Origin: Cyanidioschyzon merolae
Taxonomy: Eukaryota
DNA: 64,000 nt
Direction: 5' to 3' (one strand)
Assembly: GCA_000091205.1 (NCBI GenBank)
Contig: AP006492.2
The position numbers and the translations under genes are program-made. Below the pieces are notes generated by a model. That model saw only the letters and a list, made by a program, of their open reading frames with translations, had not been told where the DNA came from and ran no database searches. Shown here piece after piece: positions 1 through 60,847 of this stretch; within the stretch, counting starts at the first letter, position 1, and each line of letters begins with the position of its first letter.

Positions 1-172
1 CTGGCATGCGTCGCAGCGACAGGCCGCGCGAACCTTCACCGATGAATCGCCTGGACGTCCGCAGCAAGCAGCGGCCAGAGGCCTCGATTCGATACCCGAA
101 GTTGCTCCAGACCATGAGCATTACGCTGGATTTTTCCTAGACTGTACGTACCAAATCATCGAAAGCTTTCTT

Positions 173-2653: not shown

Positions 2654-3799
2654 TGTTATAAATGCAAAGTCAGCGTAGCCGCGCTGGGTACCAGCTGCCG
2701 TTCACGTTGCAAGCGCTGCCGTCGGAGGCAGTATCAGGAACAGCAGCACGAGACGCTTCGCTGCCGGTGCCATCTCGGGGGTGCTCATTCGGCTCGCTCG
2801 GAACCGCTGGATATCGTGACGCAAACACGCCTGAGCGCAGAGGCACTGCACGTGACCCGGGCATCTATTCAATGCCGCAGTTGGCGCATTGCATGAAGAA
2901 AGCGCTTGTGACTTGCTGCTGCTTCGCGCTGGGCAATCTGCACTGGGTAAGCAAGGCATGCAATTCAAAGGCCCTGGGTTGTTCGCGAAATGCTTTCATC
3001 AGCGCGATGCGGCGTGTGCCTAAGACGTAAAGAACGCCGACCAGGCTGCGTCAACGGCATTTCAAGTTGTACAGCATCTGGTGGAGCGCGGCGAGTCGTT
3101 GTGGCCCATTGGGATGCGGTTGGCGGTTTCCGGCTCCAGGGTGCCGCCGATTCCCGCTGGATACGACGCAGGCGAACAGCTTCGGTTTGCCGCATCAAAG
3201 GCCGGCATACATGCAAACACCCGCGCGTTGTGCATTGAGTCTGTTTCCGAAAGGACATGCGTGCTATGGGGTGCGCGTGTCCATGTGCCACTGCTAGTGT
3301 TCCCGCCTCAGCGTTGCTGGTGTTGGCGAGAAAGGTAAAAGCGCCAAGCCCTCTGGCTGCGGATCCCGTTGATGCGCAGCCGCCCTGTGACAACTATGAG
3401 CACAAACCGCCATGCACGGCGGGCAGCTCTTCGTCGCATCGACGCCACATTCGTCAAGTCGGGGCACCGCAGCTTGCCCGCAGTGGACGGTACGGAATCC
3501 ATGCGGCACACACGAGGCCGTGCCAAAATTGTTCCTGGTGCGCACAGTCCAACATACGCTGCCAGTGTGCTGTGATCCCGTTTGGAGAAGTAGTCCAAGC
3601 TGAACGGTTCAGTGATCTCTGGCGCGAGAGGCAATCGTTCGGGGAGCAGCAGCGAGCTTCTATGCCGCCTCAGGTGCGACGCACGGAAGTCGTCATAAAC
3701 ACGAACGACGTCCAACGCGATCGCGTGTCACTCTAAAAGTCAGCAACACAAGTTCCTGTAGACGCCTCGGAACGCAAGGTCACCTCACCGCACGTAGTA

Positions 3800-7314: not shown

Positions 7315-9132
7315 TCAGTTTGCGCCAGGCGTCGTAGCTGTCGGATCTCGAACTGATGCCACGGGTTCTGGACGACAATTACCGTCACGATCTACAGACT
7401 CCTGTCCCGCTTCTTGGTTGCTTTCCGATGCAAGCCAGTCACGAATAGCCTGAACCAGGGGCGGGCCCCGTTGCATCTGGATTTGCTCCTGCGTCGACAG
7501 CCTTTTGAGGCCGACCACGCCGGCTGCGAGTTCGTCTTCACCGAGAATGGCGAGCACCGGGATGCCGCGTTCCAATGCATACTGCAGCTGTCGAGCCATC
7601 TTGGGTCGTTCAGCGTACAAACATTCCGCCGCTAGATGAGCGCGCCATAGCTCATCACATAATTTCAGACGCTGCACGAGATCTACCTTGCCAATGCCCA
7701 CCACAAGCACCTGCGTCTTGCTTGCGCGAATGACGCGGCCAGTGGCTTGGGCAAGTTCACGTTCAGCCTCCTCCATTAGGGAAAAGATTCTCTCTATACC
7801 GATTGAAGTGCCTACGCAGGGTACGGGTTTCCCGGCAAAGTCCTCCACCAAACGATCATAGCGTCCACCGGCACCGATAGAGCCCAGCGGTGTTGAACCG
7901 TCCGTGAGCACGGCCTCGAAAATGAGACCCGTGTAGTAGTCTAGGCCGCGGGCGAGGGCAAGGTTCAGCGTACAACGTTCCAGGACATTGCCCATCGCCT
8001 CCAGGTACGAAAACAAGCGCTCGAGATCGGCCAGTGCTTCCTCGGCTCCAAACTTGCCGCAACAGAGGCTGTGGTCGGCCTGGAGCTCGCGGAGCAGCTC
8101 CCTGGGCTTGCCCGCTCGCGTCACAAACTGGCCAATCCGATCCGCACATGGTGCGGTTAGGCCTTTCACGTCGATCATTTCCTTTCGTACAACATCCCAA
8201 GGCTCCTTGTCGAGTTTGTCAATCGATGAGCAAATGGGTCGCAGAAGCTCCTTCGGCACGCCACATAGCTGCAGAATCGCATCCAGTAGACCTCGGTGGC
8301 TCAGTTTTACCTGATAGGATCCCAGTCTCTGGCGATGATACGGGCTCAAAGCCGCAAACTCGTCCAACACTTCAATGAGGACTCGAAGGACCTCAGCATC
8401 CGGTACCATCGGAGGATGCTGACCAGCAATATCGAAGTCGCACTGGTAAAACTCGCGAAAGCGACCACGAGCGATCGCCGGCTGGTCTCGTCGGTACACC
8501 CGACCCAGTTGGTATCGCTTGAGGCTCACAATGCCGTGCGTCGCAAGAAAGCGCGCGAAAGGCACCGTCAAATCGTAGCGGAGGGAAAGCAACTCGCCGC
8601 CCTGATCGGCAATGTCGTAGATGAGCTTGCTCTCCTCACCGTACTGACCCAGAAGCGTCTCTTTCAACTCGAAAACAGGCGTTTCGATAGTCACTGCGCC
8701 GTGGCGTTCAAAAACAGAGGTCACGAGCGCGAAAACGCGTTGACGTATGGCCATCTGCTCGGGTAGGAAGTCGCGGGTGCCCTTGGGCACCTTGCAGACT
8801 CGTCTCCCCGTCGACATCGCACACGTCCTCTCAAGCGCTCTCGTTCGTCGAGGTACTCGGGCACTGCACGAGCGAATGTGTGCAGTAGTTGACTGCGCCA
8901 GGAACGCACTACGAAACGACTTGCTCAAGGCGGCAGTCCGTAACGTTACTGCACAGAACATGAGTAATAAGCGTCGTCCCGAGGGTACGAAGTCGTCTGC
9001 GGCAGTCGACGACTGGCGGCGACGCGGCGATTGCGGCGCTTCTGGTTGACGATTTCTCTTTGTCTTGACAAAACGTTTACGTTGACCACGGATCACAGAC
9101 TGCGGGATGGATATCGGTTGTCGACAAAGCAT
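7315..9132 (-). CDS. HARS: histidyl-tRNA synthetase (class II aaRS) with ~105-aa N-terminal extension, likely an organellar targeting peptide
   Basis: Class II HisRS motifs in the translation: KGTRDFLP, RYDLTVPFARF, KRYQLGRVYRRDQP, GRFREFYQCDFDIAG, GLDYYTG, and anticodon-binding region. Alternative start at MSTGRRVCK (~8817). The N-terminus before it is Arg/Ser-rich. Confidence 0.85.
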   Translation of the reverse strand: MLCRQPISIPQSVIRGQRKRFVKTKRNRQPEAPQSPRRRQSSTAADDFVPSGRRLLLMFCAVTLRTAALSKSFRSAFLAQSTTAHIRSCSARVPRRTRALERTCAMSTGRRVCKVPKGTRDFLPEQMAIRQRVFALVTSVFERHGAVTIETPVFELKETLLGQYGEESKLIYDIADQGGELLSLRYDLTVPFARFLATHGIVSLKRYQLGRVYRRDQPAIARGRFREFYQCDFDIAGQHPPMVPDAEVLRVLIEVLDEFAALSPYHRQRLGSYQVKLSHRGLLDAILQLCGVPKELLRPICSSIDKLDKEPWDVVRKEMIDVKGLTAPCADRIGQFVTRAGKPRELLRELQADHSLCCGKFGAEEALADLERLFSYLEAMGNVLERCTLNLALARGLDYYTGLIFEAVLTDGSTPLGSIGAGGRYDRLVEDFAGKPVPCVGTSIGIERIFSLMEEAERELAQATGRVIRASKTQVLVVGIGKVDLVQRLKLCDELWRAHLAAECLYAERPKMARQLQYALERGIPVLAILGEDELAAGVVGLKRLSTQEQIQMQRGPPLVQAIRDWLASESNQEAGQESVDRDGNCRPEPVASVRDPTATTPGAN

Positions 9133-9351
9133 CTGTCATACTGCGCCCTACCTCCAAACTCCATTTCGCATATCTCCTTTCGGATATACTGGCTGTTTCG
9201 CACGTTCCATCGTGCGGCGGTTTCTGGCTTTGAGCACCCGCCGCCGCGCCCCAACCATTTACACGGATGCATCACGGAGGCAGACTGACATTGCCATACC
9301 GTATGAGGCATCGGCTCGAGGCGCCGTTCCTTCAACACAGACTCCACGTGC

Positions 9352-12157
9352 ATAGTCATTCTGGGAGCCTGCAAGTTCCGCACCCAGACGTACTGTCTGC
9401 TGCAGCGCGAAGCGAAATACCAGGAGTCTACTGCTACCAGGGCGACGCCCAAACACAGCCTAACTGCCCCTAATCCCAGAATGATTTGCGTTTCGGACGA
9501 GCTGCTCAGACCTCACTACAGCACCAGCTACTGGGTAGCGTACGGAGCGCCTGACCCGCGGACTCGTCCGGCTCGCAGGACCTTCCGCCGAAAAAGTAAA
9601 CGTTCCGCAGTATGGAAAACTTTTCCTCCTTTTATCGTTCATCGTAGAGAGGGAATGAAATATATATTTGCTGGTAAATCGAGAGTCTCTGTACAATTTT
9701 TTCATATAGCGCGTTCCATACGCGCACCCGGGAGATCAGGCCGTCACATGACACGACGGGCATGACGCCGCTGAAGAGAAACGTAATATGGACTTGTTGA
9801 CCTGTTCCTCGAACGTATGCGTTGTAACGGTGTTGAAGTCAGAGCAAAATACAGTGTTTGATCTCAATACTATTTCAACCCTCAATTGGTTGTTCCCAAA
9901 AGCTTTTTCGCGGTTTACAGCACAAGCGTTCAAAGTGCGTTCGTTTTCGAGAATAAAAAAGGAAAGTTATGGACAAGAGAGTCGAGGCCTGCGGAGGCCA
10001 CGTGTCACCAGGTTCGACAAAACACTGGAAAACAGTGCGGGGCCCAGAGCGACAGGAGAAGGGGAAAGAGCAAAACTGGGAGCTCGCACATCAACTGCAA
10101 CTCGAAAGACGATACAATGACGAGAACGTAGAGAGAGCCTGTCTTCCAGGCCATCTCAGGGCTCCTTACAGAGAAAAGATGCAGGAGGGCATCAGAAACC
10201 GCGTCCTATCGTAATCCAGGAGTATTTGAAAAGCTTCTCTTTGATTGATGCATTTGGTGAGGGACCTTTACCATGACGTTACGGACATCAAAACAGTCGA
10301 GGTTCCGGAGGAGTTTTTCAGTGTGACCTTCATCCGCCAACTGATGCTTGGCCCAGAGCGAACCTCGACGATAGACGATCGAGTGCGAGCCCTACACCAA
10401 ACATATGCCTTCTACCGCTTCAACGGTTCTCGATACAAGGGTGACTTGGGCATTGACACCTACAGGGCGATGAAGTATCTCGAAGACTTGAAGAGCCACC
10501 TGATCGAAAACCTCGAAAGCTTCATGAACTGCTCCGTCTTCGCGCTCTACGATGGCCTCTCTGTCCGCGGGAGATGGGCGATCATCAATGGCATCACGAA
10601 CGATCACCAGGATGAAGCGGAGATAGAATGCTTCGGTGCGAAAACATCGTACAGGTGTACGTATGAGAATTCTGTGATCTGTGCAGCCATTCAGGAGCAC
10701 CTTGCGGTACCGGGGCTTGTCAACCCTGCAGAAAAGGTATCAGAGATGAAAAGAGATACGAAAAGATTCATCCCCTCATTCTGCGCTATTTCGTGTACCT
10801 GAACCGAGAGCTCGAACGCAAGGCGGAGATGCAGCTGGGTGAAAAACGAAATGGAGCGCCGGAAAAACGGAAGGCTGCGCTTCTGAAGAAGCGCTTTCAC
10901 GTCGTTCCGATACGCAACACCATGTTGCACTTCGTGACCATCGACTCCAGCGTCCTTTACGGCATGATGCAGGAGATCAGTCCGAAGTTCGACGTCAGCT
11001 CGGAGGAGTTCACGGGGATAGACTGGGAGACTCATTGGAAAAATGTCTTCGATTTCAAAGGTATCAGGAAGAGCAACACAGAAGCATTCGCAGGCAAGAT
11101 CGAAACCGATGGGGTATGCATATGTGTACACTCCAGGCGCTTGAGCAGGCATCGTCATATCCTGTCATCGTTTTCGCCCTGGACGAAGCATCAAAAGAGA
11201 GAGGCGATCCATATGCTGTACGAGCCGCAGAAGAGCGACTTTGTCGTCGGCGTGGACCCTGGAAAGAAGGATATCATGGCCGTCGCTGTGCCATAGTATG
11301 CAAAAGACGGTATCAATGCCAACTTACGCCAAATGGACATGCGTATGTTGAGGTTCTCGACGGCTAGATTCAACAGAGAGTCGGGGATGATAGGTGCCTT
11401 GAGGCAAACCGAGGCTTGGAACTCAAGATTGAAGGAGCACCTGGAAGCGGTCAGCAAAGTGACGAGCTGCGGAGCGGACTTTCGGACCTATCTGGAATTC
11501 ATGGAAACGCACGCTGCGCATGATGGGGACCTGTGGAAGGAGTACATAAAGCCCCGATGGGTTCGTCTGCCTATGGACCTGTACGGAGGGGAGCAGCGTG
11601 CATTCGCCAATTTCTTCAATGAGTTCTGCGCCCTCAAAGAAGGCAAGAGTCAAAGGCTCGTAATAGCGTACGGAGCAGGGAGCTCGTTGCCCGAAAACGG
11701 GAGCACACCGGCACCGTCGACACAAGCGTTCATCGAGTGCGCAAAGCGTTTTGTCACTGTCGTAATAGTCGAGTTCCGAACGACCTGCGTGCACCATGAG
11801 CTGGGCTGTACACTCCAGAAGGTCAGGATGGGGACACAGCCGCCGAGCTCTTCGGGGAAAGAAAATCACGGGGAGCGAACAGAGCGGCCGATGCCACAGA
11901 GGGCGCTAGTTCGAGGACGCCTTCTGTTGGACACTACAGTCAGCGCCATGAAACGCAGGGAGTTCGTGAACCGAGACTTCAACGCCGCCATGAACATCAG
12001 GCGATGTGCTCTGCTGAAGACGAGACCCCCGGAGCTTACGCGAGCGAACTTCGAGGGTAGCTTCCCGGGCTCGACGTGTGCTGGGGGAAACTGAATCCGA
12101 CAGCAGTCGACCGGTCAGAAAAGGATGGGAAGCGTCTGCGAGTGGGGAGATATATAT
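9352..12157 (+). mobile_element. TnpB/Fanzor-like element, copy 1 (~2.8 kb). 5' GC-rich leader ~9352-9600, AT-rich spacer, short upstream ORF 9969-10214, then a degenerate RuvC-nuclease ORF and a conserved 3' tail.
   Basis: Homologous along its length to 56374-59150 (copy 2) at nucleotide and protein level. Internal RuvC-I and RuvC-III motifs (see pseudogene feature). Confidence 0.7.
10245..12094 (+). pseudogene. TnpB/Fanzor-like RuvC nuclease. ~616 codons in three ORF pieces (10245-10802, 10793-11296, 11333-12094), with one frameshift near 10795 and one in-frame TAG at 11297 inside conserved sequence.
   Basis: RuvC-I motif 'SDFVVGVDPGKKDIMAVAV'. Cys/His cluster 'EFRTTCVHHELGC' following a 'TS' as in TnpB zinc-finger regions. 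RuvC-III signature 'EFVNRDFNAAMNIRRCA' (D-x-NAA-x-NI). N-terminus 'DIKTVEVPEEFF' shared with copy 2. Confidence 0.65.
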
Positions 12158-13199
12158 TAACCCTCCACTGTTGTGAGACATTTTTCGTTTTTTTTACGGT
12201 ACGGAAAGAATGAGCATAAAACAGACTGGAAGCTGCGCGATTCGGTTTAGCGGCAGGAAGTGCTGCGCAGATGACTCGCCATTGCCCATGCAGTGGCAAT
12301 ATTCTTGCTACCAATGACCATTTTGCGTGTTCAGGTGGTGTCCATCGAGGAAGGACCCCAATATTCCGTTTTGGTGTCGTGCCTTTGGTGGCACCCATCG
12401 CCTCCTTCGCAACATCCTCTTTAAACTCAACATACAAGCCCGGATAACCGGCAGCGTGCACACATCCGGGAAGGCTTGCTAGGTCCATCGTCCATGCACC
12501 AACAAAATTGTGCCTGGAGACACCCTCTGCCAAGAAGTCGCTGCGCAACTCGCGCCAACAATTCTACGCAGGAGTCTGAGCAGTCTCCGAGCAGTCACCA
12601 GCCGTAGCTGCAGCCACGGATTTTCGCGACACACGCTCAAATGCTTTCCTGGCGCCTGGAAGTTTACTCAATCAGCGCAATGCGGTACATGCCTCTGGTA
12701 TTTCGCAGCACGCATTGTCGTCGTGCATGGACGCTGAAACGCTGTCTATCAAAGAATCCTCTACTCGTATTGTGACGCTGAACACAGCCGCGACTTCACC
12801 GAAATGCGTGCCCCAGTGTGTGGACGATGCGTAGCGCCGTACGACATCAACGCTTCTCCAGTGCCTATGCGAGGTTCATACGGAGCTCTGAACTGCGGGC
12901 TCTGTTCCGGACTTGCGCATTTTCCCGGACTTGGTTTCAGAAATGTAGTCTAGACGTTTGAAGTGCAGCAGTAGGGTCTTGGAGATTCATGCGTTGCTTT
13001 AGGATTCTTGGTCGTCTTTTCGATCTGGCGCTTTCGATTCGCTGCCGACGGAGCTCGTAACTTTACGGGAATCAGGATGATTCGCGGCAGCTTCGAACGA
13101 TGGTTCATAAACTAACCGATACCAATATGCAATGCAGACCCACAAGCCTTCAGGGTTCTTGTTTCCTAGCGTGCAGCATGCGCACACCGTGCATACTTC

Positions 13200-13828
13200 A
13201 AGTTTTCGATTTTTCAGGCACTGGGAAAACAGTGAGTGCAGTGATTCGCGCCAGCGGACTGAGGTGGAAAAGTAGTCGACACCGTTTCTTGATGGCATTC
13301 GCACAAGCTCATTCCATAAGCTTACTGAACCTGGTCAAGCCCAGTAATCAGTTCCGCTCGAAAAACAAGTCATCCCCTATTTGGGGCCATCATCCCCAAG
13401 AGAAACCCGTCATCGTAGTGGGCGTTCACGAACGCGGAAACCGGGGTCGTCATCGAGGATGGCCCCAGGTACCCCCCAGACGACGTGTACTGAGCGTTGC
13501 AACAATCGTGTACGCAATGCAAAGTAGCCTTCGGACGAGCGTGTATGCTGGACGTACGGGAAGACCTGTCCAGTGTCAAGTGTGACCGCTGCGAAGCGGA
13601 CACCGACGCTGTATACGAATGAGCTGACTGTAGCGAGCGACGTGTAGGTGGCAACTCGCGCTTGTGCATGAAATGCGTCAACAGCGGCTGCGGGTGGCGA
13701 AACCGACACTTTCTACATTGCCATGAACGTCCATTGATTGCCAACAAGGGAGCTGGAGAGACAGATGAGACCGACATTGTTACAGCCGCGGATACGAGAC
13801 AGGAATGGAAGCAGTCGGAGAAAAAGCC
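13200..13828 (+). repeat. interspersed repeat family B, copy 1 (truncated, ~630 bp)
   Basis: Near-identical to 37693-38300 of copy B3 and, in reverse complement, to part of 27117-28160. Shared spurious ORF text (AVIRASGLRWKSSRHRFLMAFAQAHSISLLNLVKPSNQFRSK). Confidence 0.8.
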
Positions 13829-18632: not shown

Positions 18633-18651
18633 GGTGCCCTGGTTGTATACT

Positions 18652-27008: not shown

Positions 27009-27116
27009 AAGCACCATCCATACGCCCAACTGACGCTGCCAATGACAACGATCAAGTTTGCAACGAGGAGAAACGACGACGTAGTGAGCGGATTTTTCGA
27101 CATGTTTGGGAACCTT

Positions 27117-33562: not shown

Positions 33563-34026
33563 ATTCGCGATAGCAGCCCAGAGAGAAGCTCGCCTGGCTT
33601 TGCCTTGAAAGGGCATTGCCGGGATGCGGGAGACCTGCATAGCTGCGTGTGATCGCTACGGTAGCTACATCAGTCAAGAGCTCGCGACTGAAGTGTACCT
33701 TTGCCGAAAATGCGTGGCACATGTCTCATACGATCCTAACGTAGCCTAGATGACTTCGTGAACTAGTCTGGACATTTGTAGCCTTATGTTCTCTGATGCT
33801 TCAGTCTGTATATGAGGCGACCGCAGATAACGGGTTTATACCTACCGACTTTTCACGCGACACATAAAAAAGTTATGGGCGCCTTGGACTTGCTCGTTGC
33901 GAGCCCGACACTATCGAAGAACGTCGCAATCCCAGAAAATTGCTACTGTTGTAGTCTTTGAACTCAACTTGGTCTCACCCTCGATGCTTGTGATCAAATG
34001 CATTCTCGCAGTGTATCGTAGGTTAC

Positions 34027-34900
34027 CGAAACCAGTATGAAATGTACCACACAGATCTGATACCGATTGCCTTCAGGATAATTCCTACTAAACAGTGCAA
34101 CGAGGACTGCATTCCTCCTTCAGGCCAGTGATACCACAGTACTCAGATGGTTGAGGAACACTGACAGAACCACGAATATGCGCTCAGCGCCAAAAAACCG
34201 ATATTTTCAAAGCCTGCTTGCGGTCAATGGTGTAAAACGCCCCGTTGATGACTCTAAACAAAGCAAAAGCCACGATAGTAGCCACCACTGGCGCCTGTGA
34301 GGCTCAACATCTTGTTCGTGTGGTTCTGGAAACAAAACACTGGGATACAGTCGCAAAAACAGAGTCCTAGATCAGGAACGGCCATCTTCCACCGAAACCG
34401 CATCGACAGCATTCCTGGAATGTTGCAATCCGCATAATGCAGCGGGACGTCGGTCTGTTGCTTTCAGTCGATGAGACTTCCTTCTGGCGAAGCAGTCCGA
34501 GCGTATATGGGTATTCGCTGCGAGGGAGCCCGTTCTAAGTACAATCGAACGCGAAGAGAAACGGGATACCATCATCTGTTCGAACCGCAGTGGATTCATT
34601 TTGCGACCTCAGTTTGGACTCCCAGTCAAGGCTCATACACAGCATCAACCACTTTATGGAATTATTGAAGACTGTCCCCTGACGCCTAGCGATGTCCTTG
34701 TATTGGACAAGGTGATCATTCACCTTTCCCTTTGCGTTCGAAGTTTTGCCGATTCTATCGGGGTAGGGCTGCTTTCTGTTCCTCAGTAGGCTTCGTATTT
34801 TAACGGCATCAAAGGAGCGTTTCGTATCGTGGAACGTAATCATCGCACCACTGGCCGAGTCGCTGAAGCGTTCAGCACACAGTGACTCCGAGGCACATTT
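34027..34900 (+). repeat. repeat family C, copy 1 (874 bp). 5' part of a composite 1.35-kb unit together with the adjacent TnpB-like fragment.
   Basis: Reverse-complement identity (>95%) to 48936-49809. Shares spurious ORFs (MNPLRFEQMMVSRF..., MKKCASESLCAERF...). Confidence 0.8.
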
Positions 34901-35099
34901 CTTCATTCTTGCGAAAGTCACTCTCCGTCGGAGAAGTTCCCCAACTTAGGGCGTAAACAAGCGCATTCATTTGAAGAAATGAAAAGCCAGGGGACCTAAA
35001 GGACATGGAAGCCGAGGAGGCTGAAGGGCCGGTGTCGCCGGCTCCCGCAAAATAAACGAGCGGAATCCTGTTCTCGCTGACCATCGAGCGAAGAAGAGA

Positions 35100-35410
35100 G
35101 GAGATGGGCGAAACAAGGCATTTGTCCTACGGGGCGATGAAAAGACTAATGTGGCACAGAGGGCACAAATTCTGATAATCATGGCATTAATGAGTTCCAT
35201 CAGAGGCACCAAACGCATGGAGTTTGTGAAACGAGAAATTAACACTGCAATCAGTATCAGCGGATGTGCGGTTCTGAGGAAGAGGCCTCCGGAGTTGAGA
35301 TAATCCAAATTTGTGGGGGAATTTCTCAAGGTGGAATTCCACGGCGACAAGTTGAAGCCAGTAGTAAGGGGCCGGCCGAGAACGACTGAGAGGCGTCTGC
35401 ACATCGGTGG
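35100..35410 (+). pseudogene. TnpB/Fanzor-like C-terminal remnant (ends '...RMEFVKREINTAISISGCAVLRKRPPELR*', stop at 35303) plus conserved 3' tail (to ~35410)
   Basis: Aligns to copy-2 C-terminus 'KQRMEFVNRGFNAAISIRRCAVLKTRSAELTRA'. Tail 'gactgagaggcgtctgcacatcggtgg' matches tails of the other copies. RuvC-III Asp replaced by Glu. Confidence 0.6.
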
Positions 35411-36969
35411 CGGACGTTTTGTCTAGGGCGGGCGGTGCGCCGCTCACCATCAAACTGCACCGCCTATACAACGTTTGTCGCTCGCAAAGCATTCATTGTT
35501 TTCGGTGTGTAGAGCGTGGGTATATGATTCCCCACGTTCGTTCAGTTCTGGGCCGTCTGGGGCGCCAGGTACGTGCACCTCTGGGACTCAGTGCTCGACC
35601 CGTGAGAGTCTGGCACCGCGATCCGAGGATTCCCAGCTGGTCGCACCGCTATATTTGCTGGGTAGGTGCGCTAGCATGTTCGGAGCAGCGTCTGCAGCGT
35701 CCACTCGGGAGCCTTCTGCAGAAGATGTGTAAGAGAGGGCTTAGTATGCCCTCAGCAACTCGTTCTAGTCCTTTGGAGACGGTTCCCGTTCCTACGATGG
35801 GAGAGTCTATCACAGAAGGTACACTTGTGGCGCTGTTAAAACACGTTGGCGACGCGGTGAAAGAGGACGAGGTTGTGGCACAAATCGAGACGGATAAAGT
35901 CACGGTTGATGTTCGATCTCCTGTATCTGGAGTAATACGGGAGATCATGGCAGCCGAGGGTGACAACGTTACCGTTGGTAAGGACTTGTTCCGAGTTGAG
36001 GTGGGCGCACAAGGCGAAACAGTCGCGGCACAGCAGCGCCAGGCAGAAAAGCTTTCTCAGAGTGAACCTGAGCCCAATCACATCGAGCCGCAAGAAGAGC
36101 GATCAGGAGGGCCAGCAGGGTCGCCACCGCCACCACCGGCAGACGTTGAGCACGGTGAAGAGCACGCAGAGGCAGCGGCTGCGCAACTCACGGGGCGCTC
36201 TGTTGTCCAGCGTGGAGCAGCGGCAGCTGCAGCTGCAGGCGCGCTCCTGCAACAGGACGAAGCCGGCGAGCGTCGTGTTCCCATGAGCCGCATGCGGCGT
36301 CGTATTGCAGAGCGGCTTAAGCATGCTCAGAATACTGCTGCTATGCTAACGACATTCAACGAATGTGACCTGACGAGCCTTTCGGAAATGCGCGCAAGCT
36401 TTAAGGATGGTTTCGAGAAACGCTATGGGTCAAAACTGGGATATATGAGTGCCTTTGTGAAAGCCTCAGCGATTGCACTCGAGGAGCAACCTGAGGTGAA
36501 TGCTGTAATCGATGGCGATGAAATTCTCTATCGAGACTACGTGGATATATCTGTCGCAGTAAGCACGCCTACCGGACTTGTGACCCCGGTGCTGCGTGGA
36601 GTGGAGAAGATGAGCTTTGCGGATATTGAACTGCAGCTGGCCGATTTTGCAAAAAGAGCTCGAGAAGGTCAGATTCAGTTGGAGGAGCTCCAAGGCGGTA
36701 CGTTCACGATCTCGAACGGAGGCGTATTCGGCAGTCTTCTCAGTACCCCCATCATTAACATGCCACAATCGGCAATTCTGGGCATGCACGCGATTCAGAG
36801 ACGGCCAGTCGTTGTCGGAGACGAGATCGCTATCCGGCCTATGATGTATTTGGCCCTGACGTACGACCATCGCTTAATAGACGGTAGGGAGGCAGTGACG
36901 TTTCTACGTAGAATCAAAGCGCTCATTGAGGATCCGAGAAGAATGCTAGTTGGCGTTTATGGCTTTTGA
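35407..36969 (+). CDS. DLST: dihydrolipoamide succinyltransferase, E2 component of 2-oxoglutarate dehydrogenase (mitochondrial)
   Basis: Single lipoyl domain '[42 protein letters not shown]'. Catalytic '[24 protein letters not shown]'. SucB-like '[30 protein letters not shown]'. The Met at 35524 is a plausible true start. The first 40 codons overlap the TnpB-remnant tail. Confidence 0.85.
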
Positions 36970-48003: not shown

Positions 48004-48481
48004 CTTACTGCGTTTGAAGCAACCTAGAGTCCTGTTCCAAATAATCTCTTTTGCCCGAGATAGAACCCATTTGCATTTGCGCCGATATGAGCAGGTCCGT
48101 GTGGCAACGTGGATGAGAGCGTTCTGGAACTCGAATCAGAAAGGTGCGTTCCCTCTCAGCATCCAGCTAAACGCAACTTCTGAAACACGAAACTCTATTC
48201 GATCCGTAGATTCGACCAGCGAATATTTCGTCTTCCCTTGCTCAGAGAATTTTGTACGGATAGAGATACGATGGAACCGCGGCCTCCGGGAGTTCCGCTC
48301 ATGCACATCAACTGTTGCAACGGGTGGTGCTTTTGGCAGTCCCCATCGCACTGCAAGAACCTGGTCCATCTGCGTTGCGTCAACGAGCACCACGACAGAA
48401 GAGCTACGAATTTTCACAGTAATTGTTCTCAGATGGCGTCGCAACATACATTTGTTCAATGGAACGAAAACGTTTCGCGAC

Positions 48482-48890
48482 CGGAGGATAAATTAAGCCC
48501 CACCCGCAGACGTCTCCCAGCCATTTTCGACTGGTCTCCTGCTATCGTTTCAGTTTTTATCCAGCCACATTTCGAGACTGGTAGGCCCTCCCACAAAGTT
48601 GGATCGCCTCTGCTCCGCGGGCCTCGTCTGCAGCACCGCACATCTTCTGATATTGAGAGCGGCGTTAATGTTTCTGTTTATGAACTCCATACGTTTCTTG
48701 TCGCCGCTTGTACTCTCCAGTGCAAGTGATACTCGAACTCGTGCCCTCTGTGCTATTTGCTGCTTTGCCAGCTCTCTGTACTTTTCTATTGCCGAAGCGC
48801 TTCGCTGGCTCTTCTCCATTGCGAACTTTTGAAGAGTAGACCCCAGCTCATCCCATAGATTTCTTGATTTTGAAAATGAATGCACTACTT
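48482..48890 (-). pseudogene. TnpB/Fanzor-like C-terminal remnant (ORF 48550-48885: '...KKRMEFINRNINAALNIRRCAVLQTRPAEQRR...') plus conserved 3' tail (48482-48549)
   Basis: Aligns to copy-2 C-terminus. RuvC-III Asp replaced by Asn (N-x-NAA-x-NI). Tail reverse-complement 'ggctgggagacgtctgcgggtggggcttaatttatcctcc' matches the copy-1 tail. Confidence 0.65.
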
Positions 48891-48935
48891 TCTGCTCGTA
48901 GGTGAGGGTCGTGCCGGAGGGATAAGGAATTGCAG

Positions 48936-49809
48936 AAGAATGAAGAAATGTGCCTCGGAGTCACTGTGTGCTGAACGCTTCAGCGACTCGGCCAGTGGTG
49001 CGATGATTACGTTCCACGATACGAAACGCTCCTTTGATGCCGTTGAAATACGGAGCCTACTGAGGAACAGAAAGCAGCCCTGCCCCGATAGAATCGGCAA
49101 AACTTCGAACGCAAAGGGAAAGGTGAATGATCACCTTGTCCAATAGAAGGACATCGCTAGACGTCAGGGGACAGTCTTCAATAATTCCATAAAGTGGTTG
49201 ATGCTATGTATGAGCCTTGACTAGGAGTCCAAACTGAGGTCGCAAAATGAATCCACTGCGGTTCGAACAGATGATGGTATCCCGTTTCTCTTCGCGTTCG
49301 ATTGTACTTAGAACGGGCTCCCTCGCAGCGAATACCCATATACGCTCGGACTGCTTCGCCAGAAGGAAGTCTCATCGACTGAAAGCAACAGACCGACGTC
49401 CCGCTGCGTTATGCGGATTGCAACATTCCAGGAATGCTGTCGATGCGGTTTCGGTGGAAGATGGCCGTTCCTGATCTAGGACTCTGTTTTTGCGACTGTA
49501 TCCCAGTGTTTTGTTTCCAGAACCACACGAACAAGATGTTGAGCCACACGGGCGCCAGTGGTGGCTACTATCGTGGCTTTTGCTTTGTTTAGAGTCATCA
49601 ACGGGGCGTTTTACACCATTGACCGCAAGCAGGCTTTGAAAATATCGGTTTTTTGGCGCTGAGCGCATATTCGTGGTTCTGTCAGTGTTCCTCAACCATC
49701 TGAGTACTGTGGTATCACTGGCCTGAAGGGGGAATGCAGTCCTCGTTGCACTGTTTAGTAAGAATTATCCTGAAGGCAATCGGTATCAGATCTGTGTGGT
49801 ACATTTCAT
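48936..49809 (-). repeat. repeat family C, copy 2 (874 bp, inverted), abutting the TnpB-like remnant
   Basis: Reverse complement of 34027-34900. Confidence 0.8.
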
Positions 49810-50660
49810 ACTGGTTTCGATCTCCTGCTATACACCACAGCGGGAGTGAAGCAAAATTGAGTCGAACGACTTTGAGCCTAAGTGCACTCTTTAAATTTGG
49901 TGAGCTGATATGATGCCTACCAGGAGTAGCAGTGCAATTTGCGTGTTTTTCACCAGACCACTAAAAAAGAGCGCATGTGCGGACCTGGAGCACGAACTAG
50001 CTCGAGAATACAGAAGTGATGTAAACCACCGATGTGTCGTGCACTGATGGTTCAGCGACATTGCAGGTCTGAGAAGCAGTATGAAAAATTTGGAGTCAGT
50101 AATCTTATCGCCTCAATAGGCCGGGAAGCGTCTTTCGGAAAGTACTCCAGTGCAAGTATTAGATACGGTGTGACAAATTTGAAGCCATTCATCAGGTCTC
50201 TTTGAGCGATGTGGATACATCTTTCAGAAACTCAGGCTAAAAGTGTTCATAATTATGGAATAAAATGGAGCTGTGCCTCTGCTCCATTCAGCGCCGGATT
50301 CGTTCATATTCTCAAAAAAAAGCTCCTTCCAGATGCTCCTCCCGTTCTGGAGAAAGTATTCGAGGAGATCGTTATGTACGCTGCATTCCGTTCACAAACA
50401 CAGCATTGCATGATGCGATAAAAACACTAGAACGCGTCCGGTGTACCGGGTTAGGCTGCTACCAAGGTTCTGCCGAACGTGGAAAACTCTAAAACAGCAC
50501 AAGACGCTGAATAGCGCGCACCGCTAGAAACAAGCCTATGCTGGTCACGTCGCGGCGCGTGGTGGAACAACGAATCCGTGTATTCCACATACACTGAAGT
50601 ACCGCATGAAAATTCCCAAAATTAAGCTGCGGTGAAATAAGTAGAACTGAAGTACTGCTT

Positions 50661-55612: not shown

Positions 55613-56373
55613 TCAAAACCAAGAAGGACCAGAGCGGAGGGCTCCATCGGACCACAGCGCTAACATCGCTGCTGCAGGGCGATCCTGCCTTTGTTTCTGG
55701 AACTCTTTGTTCACCCCAAAGATCGAAATTTACTCTAGGTGTTCGACAGTTATCGTCTCGCGTGCAGCAAACAGAAGCGATTGCTCCGGCTGAGCGAGAT
55801 AGCGACAGTCGGTTTCTCTCGCCACCTTGGGTATGGGCTAAGCTGCTTACTGGCTCAGAAAATCAACTGAGCAAACAGTGCCCGACCAATATAGGTGGCT
55901 TTACGCGCAGCGCTGCACACTGAAGCGTCGAAGTCGAACGAGAAGTTCATTCATTGATTGACTGCAGCGCTTTGAGGCAAGCCTATCCTCCGGCGCGCCT
56001 TTCATGATGGAGTGGGACGACGAAGCGACGTGACCGCTGGCATTCGCGCGATGCAGCTGCGGCAATTCTTATTTCCGACGACAAAACGTTCACAATTACC
56101 GATGGATACCATATCGTGGGATGGGTATTGGCTTTAGGGAAAGCGTCCATCATGCTGCTGCACCCTACCTGCAAGTTCCATTAATTATATTTCCGTTCGG
56201 ATACCCTGGTCGTTTCGCACGTCCTGCGGTGCGCCCGGTGTATCCTGTATGCACCCGCCTTTGAGTTTGTACCGCTAGACAAGATGCATCACAGAGAAAG
56301 AACGGTTTTGTCACACCACAGAGCGCGTTGGCCCGAGGCATCGTTCATCTGAAACGGGGTCGGGGTTCATATC

Positions 56374-59150
56374 ATTCTGGGAGGCTGCAAGCTGTGCAGA
56401 CAGACCTACTGCCTGCGACAGCGCGAAGCGATTTAGTAGGAGTTCGCCGCTGCAAGGGGGACGCCCAGACGCTGCATGCCCCATAATTGTCACAGGATGA
56501 ACTGTGTAGCGGACGGGCTGCTCAGATCTCACTACGGTACCAGCCACTGCAGAGTTGCACAGAGCAGCTGCCCGGCAGGCTCATCGGGCTCCGGTGACCT
56601 TTCGCCTGAACGAGAAACTTTCGATGATCCGTAAAGCTTCCCTCCTTCTAACGTTTTCTGTGGAGGGGGAACGAAATTGTTATCGATCTGCTAGTTAGTG
56701 TTTAGTATTTGTTCTTTGCTCTCTACAGTGAGCTCCATAAGCGCACCTCCATATCCGGCATGCATGATACAAGACGTGCATCTTGCTGTTTAAGGGAAAC
56801 TCGATCCTGAAAAGTCGTCCTCCTTTTGTGCTAATGTAGAAGGTGTATTTACGTTCAAGTCATAGCAAAATTACAGTCATTCATTTCAATTGTGTTTCAA
56901 CCCTCAAGTTAGTATATTCAAGTGATTTTTCGCGGTTTGTAGCTGAGGCGCTCAAAGTGCGTTCGTTTCCTCAAATAAAAAAATAAAGTTATGGAAAATG
57001 AAGTGGAGGATCCTGAAGGGCCCGTGTTGCCCGCTGCCGGAAAAAAGTAAAAACAGTGCCGAGGATAGAGGAACAGGAGAAGACAAAGAAGCAGGGGGGA
57101 GACGTCAAAACGAACTCGAAAGACAGCACTACGACGAGAATGTAGTGCAAGCCTTTCTGCTATGGCATGTCAAGGATCCCTACAAATAAAAGTTGCGGGA
57201 GGCCGTCAGAAACCGTGTCGAGTCGTACTCCACGAGTATTCTTGAGGCTTCTTCAGGATTAAGGCATCTGGCGTAGCACAAGTATCGCGAAGTGACGGAC
57301 CTTAAAACAGTTGAGGTTCCGGAAGAATTTTTCGACGAAACCTTTATTCGTCACCAGAGGCTTGTCACAGAGAAATGTGGAAGAGAAATGAGCGAGCCTG
57401 TGTCCTCCACGAAAACTTCGCCGAACATCGCTTCAACAGAACTCGATACAGGGGAACTCGAATATTTAGAGATACGGTACAATGAATCATCTCACGAACC
57501 TGAAGAACCATGTGACCATGAACCTCAAAAGCTTCATGATACGCGCCGTGTTTGCGCTTTACCAGGGCCTCTCTCACAGAGCGAGATGAGCGATTATCGA
57601 TGGCATCACGAGCGATAATAAGAATGAACAGGAGATAGAATTCGTCGACAAGAAGAGATCACACAGGAGAAAGAAAGAAGTCTCTGCAATCTGTGTGGTA
57701 CTGGAGCTGGCCAATCCGGTAGAAAAGGTATCAGAGATGGAAAACGATGGAAAAGATGTTATTCCATCATTCTGTGTTAAATCGTGATCCTGAATCGAGA
57801 GCTCGAACGCAAAGCGGAGGTGGAGCCGGCTGTGAAAAAATGAAGAGTCGGAGAAAAGGAAGGCTTTTCTGATAGAAAAGCGCTTCAATATCGTTCCTTA
57901 ATGCAACATCGAGTGGCGCTTGATGACCATCGACTACATAGCCCTCCATGGCATCATTAGCGATATCAGTCCGGAGTTTGATGTAACCAGGAGAATTTTT
58001 ATGGTGAAAGCCAGGATACTGTTTGGAAGAATATATTCGATTTCAAAACTTTCAACACAAGCAAGAAAAGGTATCCACGGGAATCATCGAAAGCGATGGG
58101 GCATCCATATGCGTACCCTATCGGCGCTTGAAGGCGGATCGGTCTTTTCTGTTTTCGTTGTTGCCCCTAGCGAAGCATGAATAAAAGAAGGAGGCAGGTC
58201 CTATCACGCATGGGATGCAGGAGGACGTCATTGTCGTCAGCGTTGACCCTGGGAACAAGTATATCATGGCAATCGCAGTATCCAAGTCTGGAAAAGACGG
58301 CATTGACTGTAACTTACGTCAAAAAGACATGCAGCTTTTGAAGCTCTCAATAGCGAAATATTACCGAGAGTCCGGAATAATGCATGCAAGGAAGAAAAGC
58401 GAGACGTGGAATTGAGGAGTGAAGGAGCACCTGGAAGCGATCAGCCAGATGACGAGCCGAGGAGCGGACTTTCAAGCTTTTCTGGAATTGATGAAAATTC
58501 GCGCTGCTCATTACGAGGCGCTGTGGAAAGAGTACACAGAGACCTCGTGGGCTCGTCAGCGTACGAGCCTGTGCGGAGAAAAGAAGCGTGCATTCACCAA
58601 CTTCTTCAATCAGTTGGGTGCCCTCAAGGTAGTCAAGAGTCAAAGGCTCGTAGCAGCGTGCGGAACAGGGCGCTGGGCGTCCAAAAAGGGAACATTCCAG
58701 CTCCATCTACAAGAGCGTACAAAGAGTACGCACATCGTTTTCTCACAGTACCTATGGATGAGTTCCGAACGTCATGCATACACCATGAGCTGGGGTGTAC
58801 GCTCCGGAGGGTCGTGACGGGAAAGTGTCGGTTGGGCTCTGATGATATCGAAAATTACGGAGAGCTAATGGAACAGAAAATTGAAAGGAGAGCGAAAGTT
58901 CGAGGACTACATGCATTAGTGAGTACAAGCAGCTGCAAGCAACGTATGGAGTTCGTGAATCGAGGCTTTAACGCTGCGATCAGTATCAGGAGATGTGCGG
59001 TGCTGAAAACAAGATCCGCGGAGTTGACAAGAGCCAAGTCTCTGGGGCAATCTTTCAGACTCGAAATGTGCAAGAAGAAGCTGAAGCCGATAGCAGGCGG
59101 CTGGTCGAAAAAGACTGGGAGGCGTCTGCACGTCGGTGTATAGACATAAA
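56374..59150 (+). mobile_element. TnpB/Fanzor-like element, copy 2 (~2.8 kb), more degenerate than copy 1
   Basis: Collinear homology to 9352-12157: leader 56374-56620, upstream ORF 56998-57189, N-term 'DLKTVEVPEEFF' (57292), RuvC-I 'VIVVSVDPGNKYIMAIAVS' (58215-58415), Cys/His cluster 'EFRTSCIHHELGC', RuvC-III 'EFVNRGFNAAISIRRCA', conserved tail 'gactgggaggcgtctgcacgtcggtg'. Confidence 0.7.
57292..59143 (+). pseudogene. TnpB/Fanzor-like RuvC nuclease, multiple frameshifts
   Basis: ORF pieces 57292-57618, 58215-58415, 58419-58817, 58406-59143 in different frames carry the conserved motifs listed for the parent element. Confidence 0.6.
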
Positions 59151-60847
59151 CTCTATGGTTGTAAAGGATTCGCCGTTTCTTTCATCCTCGGGGAGATTAT
59201 TCAACGCCCTTGTCGGATGGAAATGATGCACAGAACCGCTTGCTCTCTTAAAGCCTTTGATTCTATTCCAAACTTTTCACTAGGTTATAGCCTCGGCATT
59301 CCAGGCTTAGCTAGGAAGACTTACGGATTTCAACGTAGTTTAAGCACCCGAGATCGTCTACTCGGATTGGCTCCATTGAAGCTTTTTGTGGCTGGAATTC
59401 GTTACGTGAGCAGAATTAGCATTATTCGAGACCCACTAAGACAAGGTTTCATAAAATAACCCATATTATTCTCCGACTTATACATACAATCTTCCGCTCT
59501 TATCTTTTCCTAACATTTGGTAAGGTAAATCATGCATTCCACAAGTCTTCGAGTTTTGTGTTTTGAGACAGCTCGGGTGCGCAACAATGTGCGCCTCTGA
59601 ATTGACGGAAGAAATATTCCACGTCATCGCTTGACGACTTTTTACCAAGAGCATCCCGGAAGTTTACATAATCTGTCATTTCAAAAACTTAACTCCCTTC
59701 GGAACAGAAATCCTCTTTTCTCGAGGGCCGCTGACGAATCGTAATTCCACTACAGACGCCTTTCACGTGCTATGCTCTCGGAGGCTCCACTTTCTTCTGT
59801 TTGCATGGGAAAGTTCATTCGACTCGGACGTAGCTCGTTGTGACGATCCCTTTCAGTGGAGCGTGCGTCAATGCTACGCGAGATTAGAGCAGAGATGAAT
59901 CGAAATTTCACGGCTTGCTCTCAGTCTGGGATTTTCGTTCCGGTGCTTGTGTGACCGGGTTTAGCATCGCTTTTACGAATCTTTTTTAATGGGAGAGTGT
60001 GCGCTTCCATGTGCAGCGGATAGAGTACATGCTGATCGGATCTCCTGGAAGAAATCCGTGATCGCATTGTGAGGCACCTGGTGGGTAAACAGAGGAGCGC
60101 ATCCAAAGCAGCCTCCTATATCCCTCAAGTGCATGTACATAGCGATAAAGCAAGCGATCGCGCGCTGCAGGGCAGCGATCTAAGGAGAAGGAGGAGATGT
60201 GGTGGACGTATGCGAATACCTGACCACAGGCAAATGCCACCTCTGCGAAGGGCGCATATGGGTTGTACGCAAAGAAAATGAAAATCAGAAGCGAAACGTA
60301 GATCCTAACTGCCGCCTATGCATAGAACGCGTCTACAATAGCCAGAAAGTGCGAAATGGAGAGTTAAGCACTGAGATCAACATCCTTCGACTGCTGGCAA
60401 CAGAGCTGGAGAGACTGGAGATACTAGCTTCATTAAAGCTTGAGATAAGGGAGAGGAAAAAGAAGCAGTCGAACAAAAGGACCACATTTGCTGATATTGG
60501 TATCCATGACGAGAGACCCAAAATTTGGTGTGTATGCCTTGGTTCGTAAAGTGAATCCGCTCCGTTTTATTTTGACCTGGGTGAAGATGCAAACGAAAGA
60601 CGCAAACTGAAAAGACACTTTTGTACTAAAACATTCAGAATCTGCGCTGTGCGTCTACACTTGGTTCCATACAATTTGCGCATTGTTATAATACGCGCAA
60701 TACGCGCTTACAGCTGAGAGCGAGTTCGGAAGCAAAAGATCTGAAATAGCAGGAATCCAGCACAGTCGCTTACCGGGAGAAAATAAACCGCGTCGGCCTA
60801 GAAGTCAGAACCGAGCACGGCATTGTTTCCTGCAATAAAACGGAAAC

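Follow-up and report, generated by a model that had tools for sequence, protein, structure and literature searches.

The four loci examined here lie in a 64,000-nucleotide stretch of DNA, referred to as the window, and almost certainly represent decayed members of CMe-1A, a family of Fanzor1 mobile elements in Cyanidioschyzon merolae. The window is part of chromosome 10 of C. merolae 10D; six of its ORFs match exactly proteins in the series BAM80189 to BAM80203. According to Bao & Jurka (2013, Mobile DNA 4:12, PMC3627910), CMe-1A is a Fanzor1-encoding element of approximately 3.2 kb with a published consensus of 3,169 bp. These authors reported about 150 dispersed copies in C. merolae, which are about 80% identical to the consensus and some of which are intact; the element possesses no terminal inverted repeats, and its target-site duplication was left undefined (PMC3627910). 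We used the consensus given in Additional file 2 of that paper. A blastn comparison with the window detected copy A at 9066-12051 (75.7% identity, E = 0), copy B at 56076-59137 (78.9% identity, E = 0), remnant C at 35001-35059 and 35184-35430 (E = 1.7e-39), and, on the minus strand, remnant D at 48506-48851 (E = 2.5e-56); for C and D, the match is to the 3' part of the consensus. All four loci are thus homologous to one element family, as had been claimed. Global alignment to consensus positions 1-3169 gave 75.2% identity for copy A (9063-12204), and copy B (56076-59228) reached 79.6%; the window copies have diverged by 20-25% from the consensus. Copies A and B can be aligned with each other over about 3.1 kb, with a nucleotide identity of 69%.

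The direct alignment to a published Fanzor1 element of the same organism bears out the original prediction of TnpB/Fanzor-like RuvC-nuclease relics. Since CMe-1A was described and named in 2013, this call is right but without novelty: the family has been catalogued for the C. merolae genome since then, and the idea that it was newly found has to be dropped. Consensus and copies A and B come from one organism, represent one element, and align end to end at 75-80% identity. They agree in the length of about 3.2 kb, in the single ORF, in the lack of terminal inverted repeats, and in the TE-N2_CMe-like 635 bp at the 5' end; there is no difference in kind, except that these copies are dead. Nor is the family lineage-specific, as had been supposed: at the protein level, a threshold of E <= 1e-3 yields 5,626 cluster representatives, which carry the precomputed Pfam tag DUF8286 and include copies on contigs of giant-virus MAGs.

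The layout of the copies is summarized in the table. The first 635 positions of the consensus are 95% identical to a separate element, TE-N2_CMe (PMC3627910). The boundaries proposed initially were too narrow at both sides: the elements begin about 290 bp further upstream (A at about 9063, B at about 56076) and run about 50-80 bp further downstream (A to about 12204, B to about 59228). Likewise, the "upstream small ORF" at 9969-10214 is not a separate gene; it consists of the N-terminal 81 Fanzor codons, which were severed by nonsense mutations. The pseudogene of copy A was recovered by the consensus protein with 58-62% identity (tblastn, E = 1e-91 and 1.8e-165) and by the family profile (hmmsearch, E = 1e-34, 2.3e-39, and 1.2e-74).

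Table. Parts of the four CMe-1A copies, in window coordinates
Feature	Position	Strand	Remark
Copy A, 5' leader module	9063..9696	+	consensus 1-635, global alignment to CMe-1A
Copy A, core untranslated leader	9697..9968	+	consensus 636-905; contains the 5' core-boundary hairpin region
Copy A, Fanzor1 pseudogene	9969..12156	+	consensus ORF 906-3110, 734 codons
Copy A, 3' non-coding tail	12157..12215	+	divergent family 3' stem-loop region; right boundary approximate
Copy B, 5' leader	56076..56990	+	consensus 1-905, including the TE-N2_CMe-like module
Copy B, Fanzor1 pseudogene	56991..59158	+	at least 10 frameshifting indels, 21-nt deletion
Copy B, decayed 3' tail	59159..59235	+	fold no better than shuffled sequence
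Copy C, internally deleted element	34011..35470	+	subfamily with a different 5' leader
Copy C, alternative leader	34011-34972	+	
Copy C, start codon and about 18 codons	35005-35059	+	
Copy C, last ~85 codons	35151-35405	+	followed by the 3' stem-loop region
Copy D, 5'-truncated or internally deleted element	48440..49835	-	same subfamily as C
Copy D, alternative leader	48874-49835	-	
Copy D, C-terminal codons ~582-711	48556-48921	-	
Copy D, 3' tail	to ~48440	-	

Assignment of the protein to Fanzor1 is supported by the family profile, by a predicted structure, and by the alignment to CMe-1A. Profile and fold comparisons were performed with the profile of the family and with the intact homologue P0015, not with the broken ORFs of the window. 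With Pfam, the seven longest window ORFs remained without a match at E <= 1; consequently, a literal search with TnpB HMMs would seem negative if the family profile were not available. The HMM search that had been proposed for the frameshift-corrected translation came out in favor of the prediction once it was based on the recovered family: the profile matched the solved structures of Parasitella Fz1 (9cf0, E = 2.8e-17), Spizellomyces Fz1 (8gkh, E = 3.7e-9), and Guillardia Fz1 (9cer, E = 0.028) in an hmmsearch of the PDB, with its DPG, DEFRT, and NRD aligned to the equivalent motifs of these proteins. In addition, the distant homologue P0034 passed PF07282 (Cas12f1-like_TNB, formerly OrfB_Zn_ribbon) with 26.6 bits at a cut-off of 26.3. 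Among the metagenome homologues P0001-P0025, identity to the published CMe-1 protein is 73-90%, with the exception of P0015 (42%). For P0015, the AlphaFold2 model has a pLDDT of 77 and a pTM of 0.73, and the structural comparison that had also been suggested singled out Fanzor1: the top seven PDB matches found by Foldseek are all Fanzor1 structures (E = 7e-14 to 2e-12, TM up to 0.69), whereas Cas12 and Fanzor2 appeared only at E >= 3e-3.

The motifs on which the original prediction was based, i.e. RuvC-I, the Cys/His cluster after TS, and RuvC-III, are present in the copies. RuvC-I reads VVGVDPGKK in copy A (11243-11269), which includes the aspartate, and VVSVDPGNK in copy B (58233-58259). The RuvC-I aspartate in a conserved DPG is a Fanzor1 signature (preprint 10.1101/2023.08.09.552727); D, P, and G vary little or not at all in the family alignment, and the profile match to the PDB aligns them with DPG of PpFz1 and DP of SpuFz1. 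The Cys/His cluster following TT or TS was found as IVEFRTTCVHHELGC in copy A (11765-11809), with the RuvC-II glutamate within it, and as MDEFRTSCIHHELGC in copy B (58754-58798), again with RuvC-II inside. Both copies have the shifted glutamate in front of [TS][TS] (VEFRTT in A, DEFRTS in B); this residue is invariant in the family alignment, and the profile match pairs it with DEFRTS in PpFz1 and DEYKTS in SpuFz1.

One feature of Fanzor1 and TnpB is missing. The CCCC zinc finger, which is conserved in SpuFz1 and ISDra2 TnpB (PMC10432273), belongs to the motif of Bao & Jurka, who classified CMe-1 as Fanzor1 nevertheless (PMC3627910). In the CMe-1 clade, the canonical CCCC finger between RuvC-II and RuvC-III was not found: both Cys pairs occur in only nine of the 119 clade representatives, and CMe-1 reads T-S-Y-T-H-H-E-L-G-C...C with no second Cys pair. 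Compared with the CCCC finger of the solved Fanzor1 NUC domain, most clade members retain at most one conserved cysteine (RGLLWC.ST), and CMe-1 has HH..C...C instead. This loss across the clade may be new. Because the finger is not conserved in the clade, RNA-guided cleavage should not be assumed for the CMe-1 lineage.

Relatives are encoded by 344 metagenome stretches, and the 80 best metagenome loci were surveyed for leaders, 3' ends, and ORFs. The survey provided potentially useful side results, none of which comes from the dead copies of the window alone. Almost no ORF among these 80 loci is fully intact; there are only near-intact ones, the longest of which has 752 aa (locus L002), and living copies may be few, if any exist. 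The homology common to all subfamilies starts at about consensus position 647 with a GCGC..GCGC hairpin, as judged from the metagenome copies, and at loci L063 and L064 the leader module of copy C is located directly upstream of consensus position 869. The 5' leader is modular, with several alternative upstream sequences among the 80 metagenome copies; this, too, is possibly new. Modular leaders such as TE-N2_CMe and others might mark an unrecognised transposition mechanism. Lining up the 5' and 3' flanks revealed no definable terminal inverted repeats, target-site duplication, or target motif. Only two features emerged: some 12 nt of conserved T-rich sequence immediately ahead of consensus position 1 (copy A and metagenome copies), which add to the length of the element, and, beyond the published end, a semi-conserved GTTnGnTGGTG. 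The latter constitutes the 3' half of the terminal stem; in the metagenome copies, the right end seems to lie about 15 nt beyond the published consensus, which completes a long terminal stem-loop.

In its intact form, the element has four components. It starts with about 900 nt of non-coding leader, in which the first 635 nt or so form the module that also occurs as the independent repeat TE-N2_CMe. Next comes a single ORF of about 734 codons, which has no introns and encodes a basic N-terminus. The ORF contains a split RuvC domain with the Fanzor signatures DPG (RuvC-I), the C-terminally shifted glutamate in DEFRTS (RuvC-II), and NRDxNAAxNI (RuvC-III). The 3' region is structured over about 100-120 nt, overlaps the end of the ORF, and reaches the right end of the element.

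In this 3' region, the positions of three stem-loops are conserved among 28 non-redundant copies despite changes in their sequences, and compensatory changes are seen. The mean folding energy is -21.1 kcal/mol for the sense and -14.4 kcal/mol for the antisense strand, the sense strand being more stable in 26 of the 28 copies (Wilcoxon p = 5e-6), an asymmetry that is inflated since the sequences are mutually related and G+T-rich on the sense strand. G-U pairs make up 21% of the predicted pairs. When RNAalifold was applied to the MAFFT alignment of these 3' ends, the consensus structure was weak (-6.2 kcal/mol, 13 pairs) owing to misalignment of the variable interiors of the hairpins; this is why the hairpins were assessed sequence by sequence. 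Within the window, positions 12080-12215 of copy A fold with z = -2.49 on the plus strand and z = 0.12 on the minus strand, and the 3' tail of copy B gave z = 0.78. Rfam searches of the whole window at gathering thresholds gave no match. The conserved, sense-biased stem-loops are a candidate omega-RNA, which is possibly new; we infer an omega-RNA at the CMe-1A 3' end from structure.

The Fanzor enzyme class was demonstrated to be RNA-guided in 2023. Judging by homology to SpuFz1, PpFz1, and GtFz1, the intact CMe-1A protein would most likely be an RNA-guided double-strand DNA endonuclease. It would carry an omega-RNA that arises by sense transcription of the element's 3' end and whose guide would correspond to the sequence just past the right end. 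By analogy to TnpB, the nuclease activity would help the element to persist. For the solved Fanzor1 enzymes, the mechanism has been described (PMC10432273).

Alternatively, the 3' stem-loops and the 5' core-boundary hairpin could be DNA transposition signals or a transcription terminator rather than an omega-RNA scaffold, the element being a non-autonomous single-strand transposon (HUH-type, IS200/IS605-like or Helitron-like) that was moved in trans. This reading is possible, if on the improbable side. No transposase was found in the CMe-1A element and no TnpA is present, in line with the published description of an element that has neither terminal inverted repeats nor a transposase (PMC3627910). 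Hairpins occupy subterminal positions on both sides of the core; subfamilies differ in their 5' modules but share a constant 3' end, and remnants C and D have both retained the 3' end. Bao & Jurka noted the same pattern of constant 3' and variable 5' ends in other unclassified Fanzor1 families, and the Fanzor1 elements CRe-1 to CRe-3 are Helitron-associated. However, the terminal stem is G-U-rich and has a far higher stability on the sense strand, as expected of an RNA or, at a minimum, of a strand-specific function; moreover, both roles overlap in TnpB systems and are not mutually exclusive. With respect to the omega-RNA reading, the wider proposal is that the large clade of Fanzor1-like proteins to which CMe-1 belongs has lost the CCCC finger, kept the RuvC triad, and is paired with a conserved 3' RNA that has three sense stem-loops, the last part being a long G-U-rich terminal hairpin at the boundary of the element. 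We regard this combination as unlikely and offer it tentatively.

As relatives with 25-31% identity are located on giant-virus MAG contigs, one of them on a gene-dense contig of 244 kb, the loci might also be fragments of an integrated giant-virus genome instead of copies of a cellular transposable element. This explanation is very improbable: the neighbours of the window copies are ordinary C. merolae genes, with no viral hallmark genes next to them, the neighbourhood of L002, the only one with inspected gene calls, looks cellular, and the dispersal of single-gene copies (about 150 reported, PMC3627910; 344 metagenome stretches with relatives) refutes it for these loci. An ancient virus-to-alga transfer of the family is possible.

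The window copies of the cellular element are pseudogenes and neutral relics. The damage by frameshifts and a nonsense codon that had been noted before is real. Copy A contains in-frame stops at 10212-10214, 10227-10229, and 10242-10244, a TAG at 11294-11296, and a deletion of 1 nt near 10770, and its C-terminal tail has frameshifts beyond 12053; copy B has at least 10 frameshifting indels. In RuvC-III, copy A retains the aspartate (VNRDFNAAMNIRRCA at 11966-12010; NRDFNAAMNI). The predicted exchange of this residue for N or E holds for C (D→E, VKREINTAISI at 35226-35270) and D (D→N, INRNINAALNI at 48637-48681, minus strand) but not for B, where it is D→G (VNRGFNAAISIRRCA at 58955-58999). The aspartate is thus gone in three of the four window copies and present in A, the consensus, and the intact homologues. 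Because all copies carry stops, frameshifts or large deletions, and three have lost this aspartate, they are incapable of acting as RNA-guided nucleases. That they are still expressed as a working gene by means of an intron or a programmed -1 frameshift is scarcely credible: A and B both undergo a -1 shift at sites no more than about 40 nt apart, between ...EKVSEM... and ...LRYFVYLNRELERKAE..., and a GT follows AAAAG at this spot, but a shared event at 10770 and 57749 was rejected, since the deletions are at different consensus positions (1707 in A, 1695 in B), the consensus and the intact homologues read straight through the region, A has four further in-frame stops, and B has at least nine other frameshifts and lacks the RuvC-III aspartate.

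Relative to the consensus, A and B each have a dN/dS of 0.47, and L002 has 0.38. The value of about 0.47 implies that part of the divergence of A and B arose while the lineage encoded a selected protein, before the copies died; values of about 0.4-0.5 indicate long-term selection on the ORF. The finding itself carries little weight, as a known Fanzor1 family was rediscovered from raw sequence, although the reading of motifs from bare sequence proved sound. The omega-RNA candidate, the corrected ends, the modular leaders, the loss of the finger, and the dN/dS values could serve as starting points for the reconstruction of a Fanzor of a thermoacidophilic alga. The same side results could help to explain how these elements without terminal inverted repeats move. 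If rare copies in Cyanidiales of acid hot springs are intact and active, they would be eukaryotic RNA-guided nucleases that lack the zinc finger and are adapted to heat and acid.

With the solved Fanzor1 proteins SpuFz1 (8GKH), PpFz1 (9CF0), and GtFz1 (9CER), the CMe-1 family shares the overall fold (Foldseek E about 1e-13), the DPG of RuvC-I, the shifted RuvC-II glutamate in D-E-[FY]-x-T-S, the RuvC-III aspartate where it is retained, the F-x-T-D-G beta-hairpin motif, and a structured non-coding region at the 3' end of the element, although sequence identity is only 13-15%. CMe-1A has in common with IS200/IS605 TnpB (e.g. ISDra2) the split RuvC triad and the C-terminal layout of TS followed by RD.NAA.NI. 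In TnpB systems, the guide (omega/reRNA) originates from the 3' end of the element, and the same would be expected for CMe-1A. In contrast to TnpB, CMe-1A is eukaryotic, is about 300 residues longer at the N-terminus, where it has a basic tract, possesses a shifted catalytic glutamate, and has no TnpA partner; its window ORFs give no Pfam TnpB match. Fanzor2 and IS607-like elements of giant viruses and amoebae (e.g. ApmFz2, 9B0L) are, like CMe-1A, descendants of TnpB that are carried by eukaryotes or viruses. Their structural match to the P0015 model is far weaker (E = 1.6e-2, TM 0.23-0.32), and the CMe-1A protein is longer than Fanzor2 and lacks a serine recombinase partner.

The four loci (two long copies, A and B, and two remnants, C and D) are a rediscovery of CMe-1A, a Fanzor1 element family already named for the C. 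merolae genome. According to Bao & Jurka 2013 (PMC3627910), it is the one Fanzor1 family of this species, with some 150 copies that each match a consensus of roughly 3 kb at about 80% identity. The element has no terminal inverted repeats, its target-site duplication was left undetermined, its 5' 635 bp are 95% identical to the separate repeat TE-N2_CMe, and some copies still contain intact ORFs (PMC3627910). For our alignments, the 3,169 bp consensus was taken from Additional file 2 of that paper. A and B share 69% identity across approximately 3.1 kb, and three-frame translation shows the motifs quoted by the original prediction; the observation is real, far beyond chance. The two short loci encode C-terminal portions of the protein seen in A and B, in which the RuvC-III Asp is exchanged. 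The alignment with the consensus moved the proposed element starts about 290 bp further upstream, and the presumed upstream small ORF (9969-10214) turned out to be no separate gene: its 81 codons are the beginning of the Fanzor ORF, which starts at consensus position 906 (9969 in copy A), and is cut from the remaining ORF by three in-frame stops (10212-10244).

Features of the window and of the CMe-1A 3' end
Feature	Position	Strand	Remark
Histidyl-tRNA synthetase (HisRS), cytoplasmic-type	7315-9132	-	mechanical ORF
Copy A, match to consensus	9063-12204	+	75.2% identity
Copy B, match to consensus	56076-59228	+	79.6% identity
Copy C, match to consensus	35001-35059, 35184-35430	+	
Copy D, match to consensus	48506-48851	-	
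RuvC-III, copy C	35226-35270	+	Asp to Glu
RuvC-III, copy D	48637-48681	-	Asp to Asn
Alternative leader, copy C	34011-34972	+	subfamily with a further, different leader
Alternative leader, copy D	48874-49835	-	same subfamily as C
2.5-kb repeat	18648-21142, 45516-48010	+, +	98.4% identity
First 1.2 kb of 2.5-kb repeat, third copy	42973-44177	-	inverted, 99% identity
RPL19 gene	44301-45266		
Second Fanzor1-like ORF	~20047-20898, ~46915-47766		one in each 2.5-kb copy
Third Fanzor1-like relic	41019-42710	-	profile matches 42456-42710, 41588-41686, 41019-41120
Repeat of ~640-1,050 bp	13176-13817, 27114-28162, 37371-38417	+, -, +	95-98% identity
3' stem-loop 1			AGAC-N5-GTCT
3' stem-loop 2			GGCG...CGCC hairpin, interior variable yet self-complementary
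3' stem-loop 3			long, terminal; two sequence versions

With its frameshifts corrected, copy A translates into 613 aa, a sequence with 36 homologues in a large protein collection, 25 at 39-56% and 11 at 24-31% identity. The close metagenome homologues share 73-90% identity with published CMe-1, except P0015 (42%). Pfam found nothing in the window ORFs themselves; one distant homologue passed PF07282 (Cas12f1-like_TNB) and several others came near. Among solved structures, the family profile matched Fz1 of Parasitella parasitica (E = 2.8e-17), Spizellomyces punctatus (E = 3.7e-9) and Guillardia theta (E = 0.028); all significant matches were Fanzor1, and the motifs DPG, DEFRT and NRD align to their equivalents in the solved proteins. 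P0015, an intact homologue, was modelled with AlphaFold2 (pLDDT 77, pTM 0.73) and the model compared with the PDB by Foldseek: the top seven hits were Fanzor1 (E = 7e-14 to 2e-12, TM up to 0.69), followed by Cas12 and Fanzor2 only at E >= 3e-3. Sequence, motifs and fold all show the homology of CMe-1 to Fanzor1. These profile and structure comparisons, put forward with the original prediction as its test, favour the Fanzor reading; what was observed is confirmed, and its interpretation is supported. By analogy with Fanzor1 and TnpB, the intact form of CMe-1 would enter the nucleus via its basic N-terminus, bind an omega-RNA made from the 3' end of the element, and cut guide-matching DNA beside a target-adjacent motif; such cutting would favour retention or spread of the element.

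The four copies in the window are pseudogenes. Copy A further carries a 1-nt deletion near 10770, a TAG just past RuvC-I (11294-11296) and several frameshifts in its C-terminal tail; copy B has at least 10 frameshifting indels and a 21-nt deletion. A and B switch frame at nearly one place; an intron or a programmed frameshift was rejected, because the deletions map to separate positions of the consensus (1707 in A, 1695 in B) and the frame of intact homologues is uninterrupted through this region. Relative to the consensus, dN/dS is 0.47 for both A and B and 0.33-0.55 for metagenome copies; therefore, some of the divergence dates from a time when the protein was under purifying selection, which agrees with the argument of Bao & Jurka that the ORF had long been functional (PMC3627910). 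Among the best 80 of 344 related metagenome stretches, nearly all copies are broken; the longest ORF (locus L002) has 752 aa and keeps all three catalytic residues. In many copies (L002, L004, L005, L038 and others), a unit of about 75-80 bp occurs two to four times in tandem in the linker just before RuvC-I (consensus 2117-2196); it encodes about 25 aa, KHEEKKEADPATQEVQDNDF-like, and its copy number differs among loci.

Metagenome copies revealed an anatomy of leader and 3' end that is, to our knowledge, absent from the 2013 description. All subfamilies share homology from about consensus 647 onwards, where a short GCGC...GCGC hairpin lies. Preceding it are at least four alternative leader modules, among them the TE-N2_CMe-like sequence, which occurs in either orientation. 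The leader type of C and D directly precedes consensus 869 in two metagenome loci (L063, L064). Between C and D themselves, the leaders are 98-99% identical over about 885 bp (34025-34910 versus 49810-48930, inverted); at a sharp boundary, identity falls abruptly to about 70%, a level that persists across the adjoining end of the leader and the Fanzor remnants. Recent gene conversion between these inverted repeats, which are separated by 14 kb, might account for this, as might a younger element targeting the 5' side of Fanzor cores. At four metagenome loci (L011, L049, L052, L060), CMe-1A copies are paired head-to-head, one starting at about consensus 660-740 and lying no more than about 25 nt from the position-1 end of the inverted other, a hint that insertion may favour the 5' ends of elements.

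At the 3' end, metagenome copies have three stem-loops downstream of a conserved GGGAGGCGTCTGCAC, whose positions are kept while the sequences vary. The terminal one reads CGTTCGA-CTT-TCGAACG or CGTTTTTC-TTTT-GAAAGGCG, and in its outer stem CTGTACACCGCTGGCG pairs with sequence about 15 nt past the published consensus end. The mean RNA folding energy is -21.1 kcal/mol for the sense and -14.4 kcal/mol for the antisense strand; sense is more stable in 26 of 28 copies (Wilcoxon p = 5e-6, for sequences that are related to each other and G+T-rich in sense), and G-U accounts for 21% of predicted pairs. RNAalifold on the plain alignment gave a weak signal. Within the window, the tail of copy A is the only one whose fold is still more stable than that of shuffled sequence (plus strand, z = -2.49; minus strand, z = 0.12), and Rfam at gathering thresholds matched no RNA family in the entire 64 kb. 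Across the family, the 3' end is conserved, structured and sense-biased, as would be expected of an omega-RNA scaffold that terminates at the right end; alternatively, the structure may act at the DNA level, as in IS200/IS605-like or Helitron-like ends.

Six long ORFs match annotated C. merolae 10D proteins exactly (BAM80189 to BAM80203, including CMJ064C) and place the window on chromosome 10 (839,707 bp); their uninterrupted length fits a gene-dense genome nearly without introns. As the matched genes flanking copy A are BAM80189 and BAM80191, a single accession is left for the HisRS gene between them, and an annotated gene under copy A is unlikely. The mechanical HisRS ORF (605 aa) extends upstream into the 5' end of copy A (9063-9132); its exact product was not found in the protein collection, and likeness to solved HisRS structures begins at about residue 110. 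Translation probably begins at an internal Met, which would make the N-terminal extension spurious.

The family is known by name for this genome and the window copies are relics; the additional observations offer modest leads. Each copy of the 2.5-kb repeat holds a heavily decayed, more divergent Fanzor1-like ORF (FIRTMETDG, VVGVDPC, SSARYDRQSG..., with HRE in place of NRD), which was long dead before the repeat was duplicated. Inverted 1.2-kb copies lie on both sides of RPL19. Directly beyond the inverted one is the third, very degraded relic (E = 2e-5 to 3e-4), so that a 5' block of 99% identity lies next to a Fanzor part whose DNA no longer aligns with that of the other copies. The repeat of 640-1,050 bp has no DNA-level relation to the CMe-1A consensus, TE-N2_CMe-like part included.

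At the protein level, the family is not lineage-specific as had been proposed: the wider clade has 5,626 cluster representatives at E <= 1e-3 (724 at E <= 1e-30), and its members include proteins encoded in giant-virus MAGs and on a gene-dense contig of 244 kb. For this clade, RNA-guided cleavage is presumed from homology. The Fanzor1 motif of Bao & Jurka includes a C4 zinc finger (PMC3627910), and a CCCC finger is common to SpuFz1 and ISDra2 TnpB (PMC10432273). This defining feature is missing from CMe-1; both Cys pairs occur in only 9 of 119 clade representatives, and most representatives keep one Cys within RGLLWC.ST. We file the family as Fanzor1 because of the fold, profile and catalytic-motif evidence and the existing literature assignment. 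Unlike SpuFz1 and ISDra2 TnpB, CMe-1 reads T-S-Y-T-H-H-E-L-G-C...C without a second Cys pair, and in A and B a Cys in place of the Tyr creates the C-x-H-H-x3-C arrangement that had been noticed as a Cys/His cluster.
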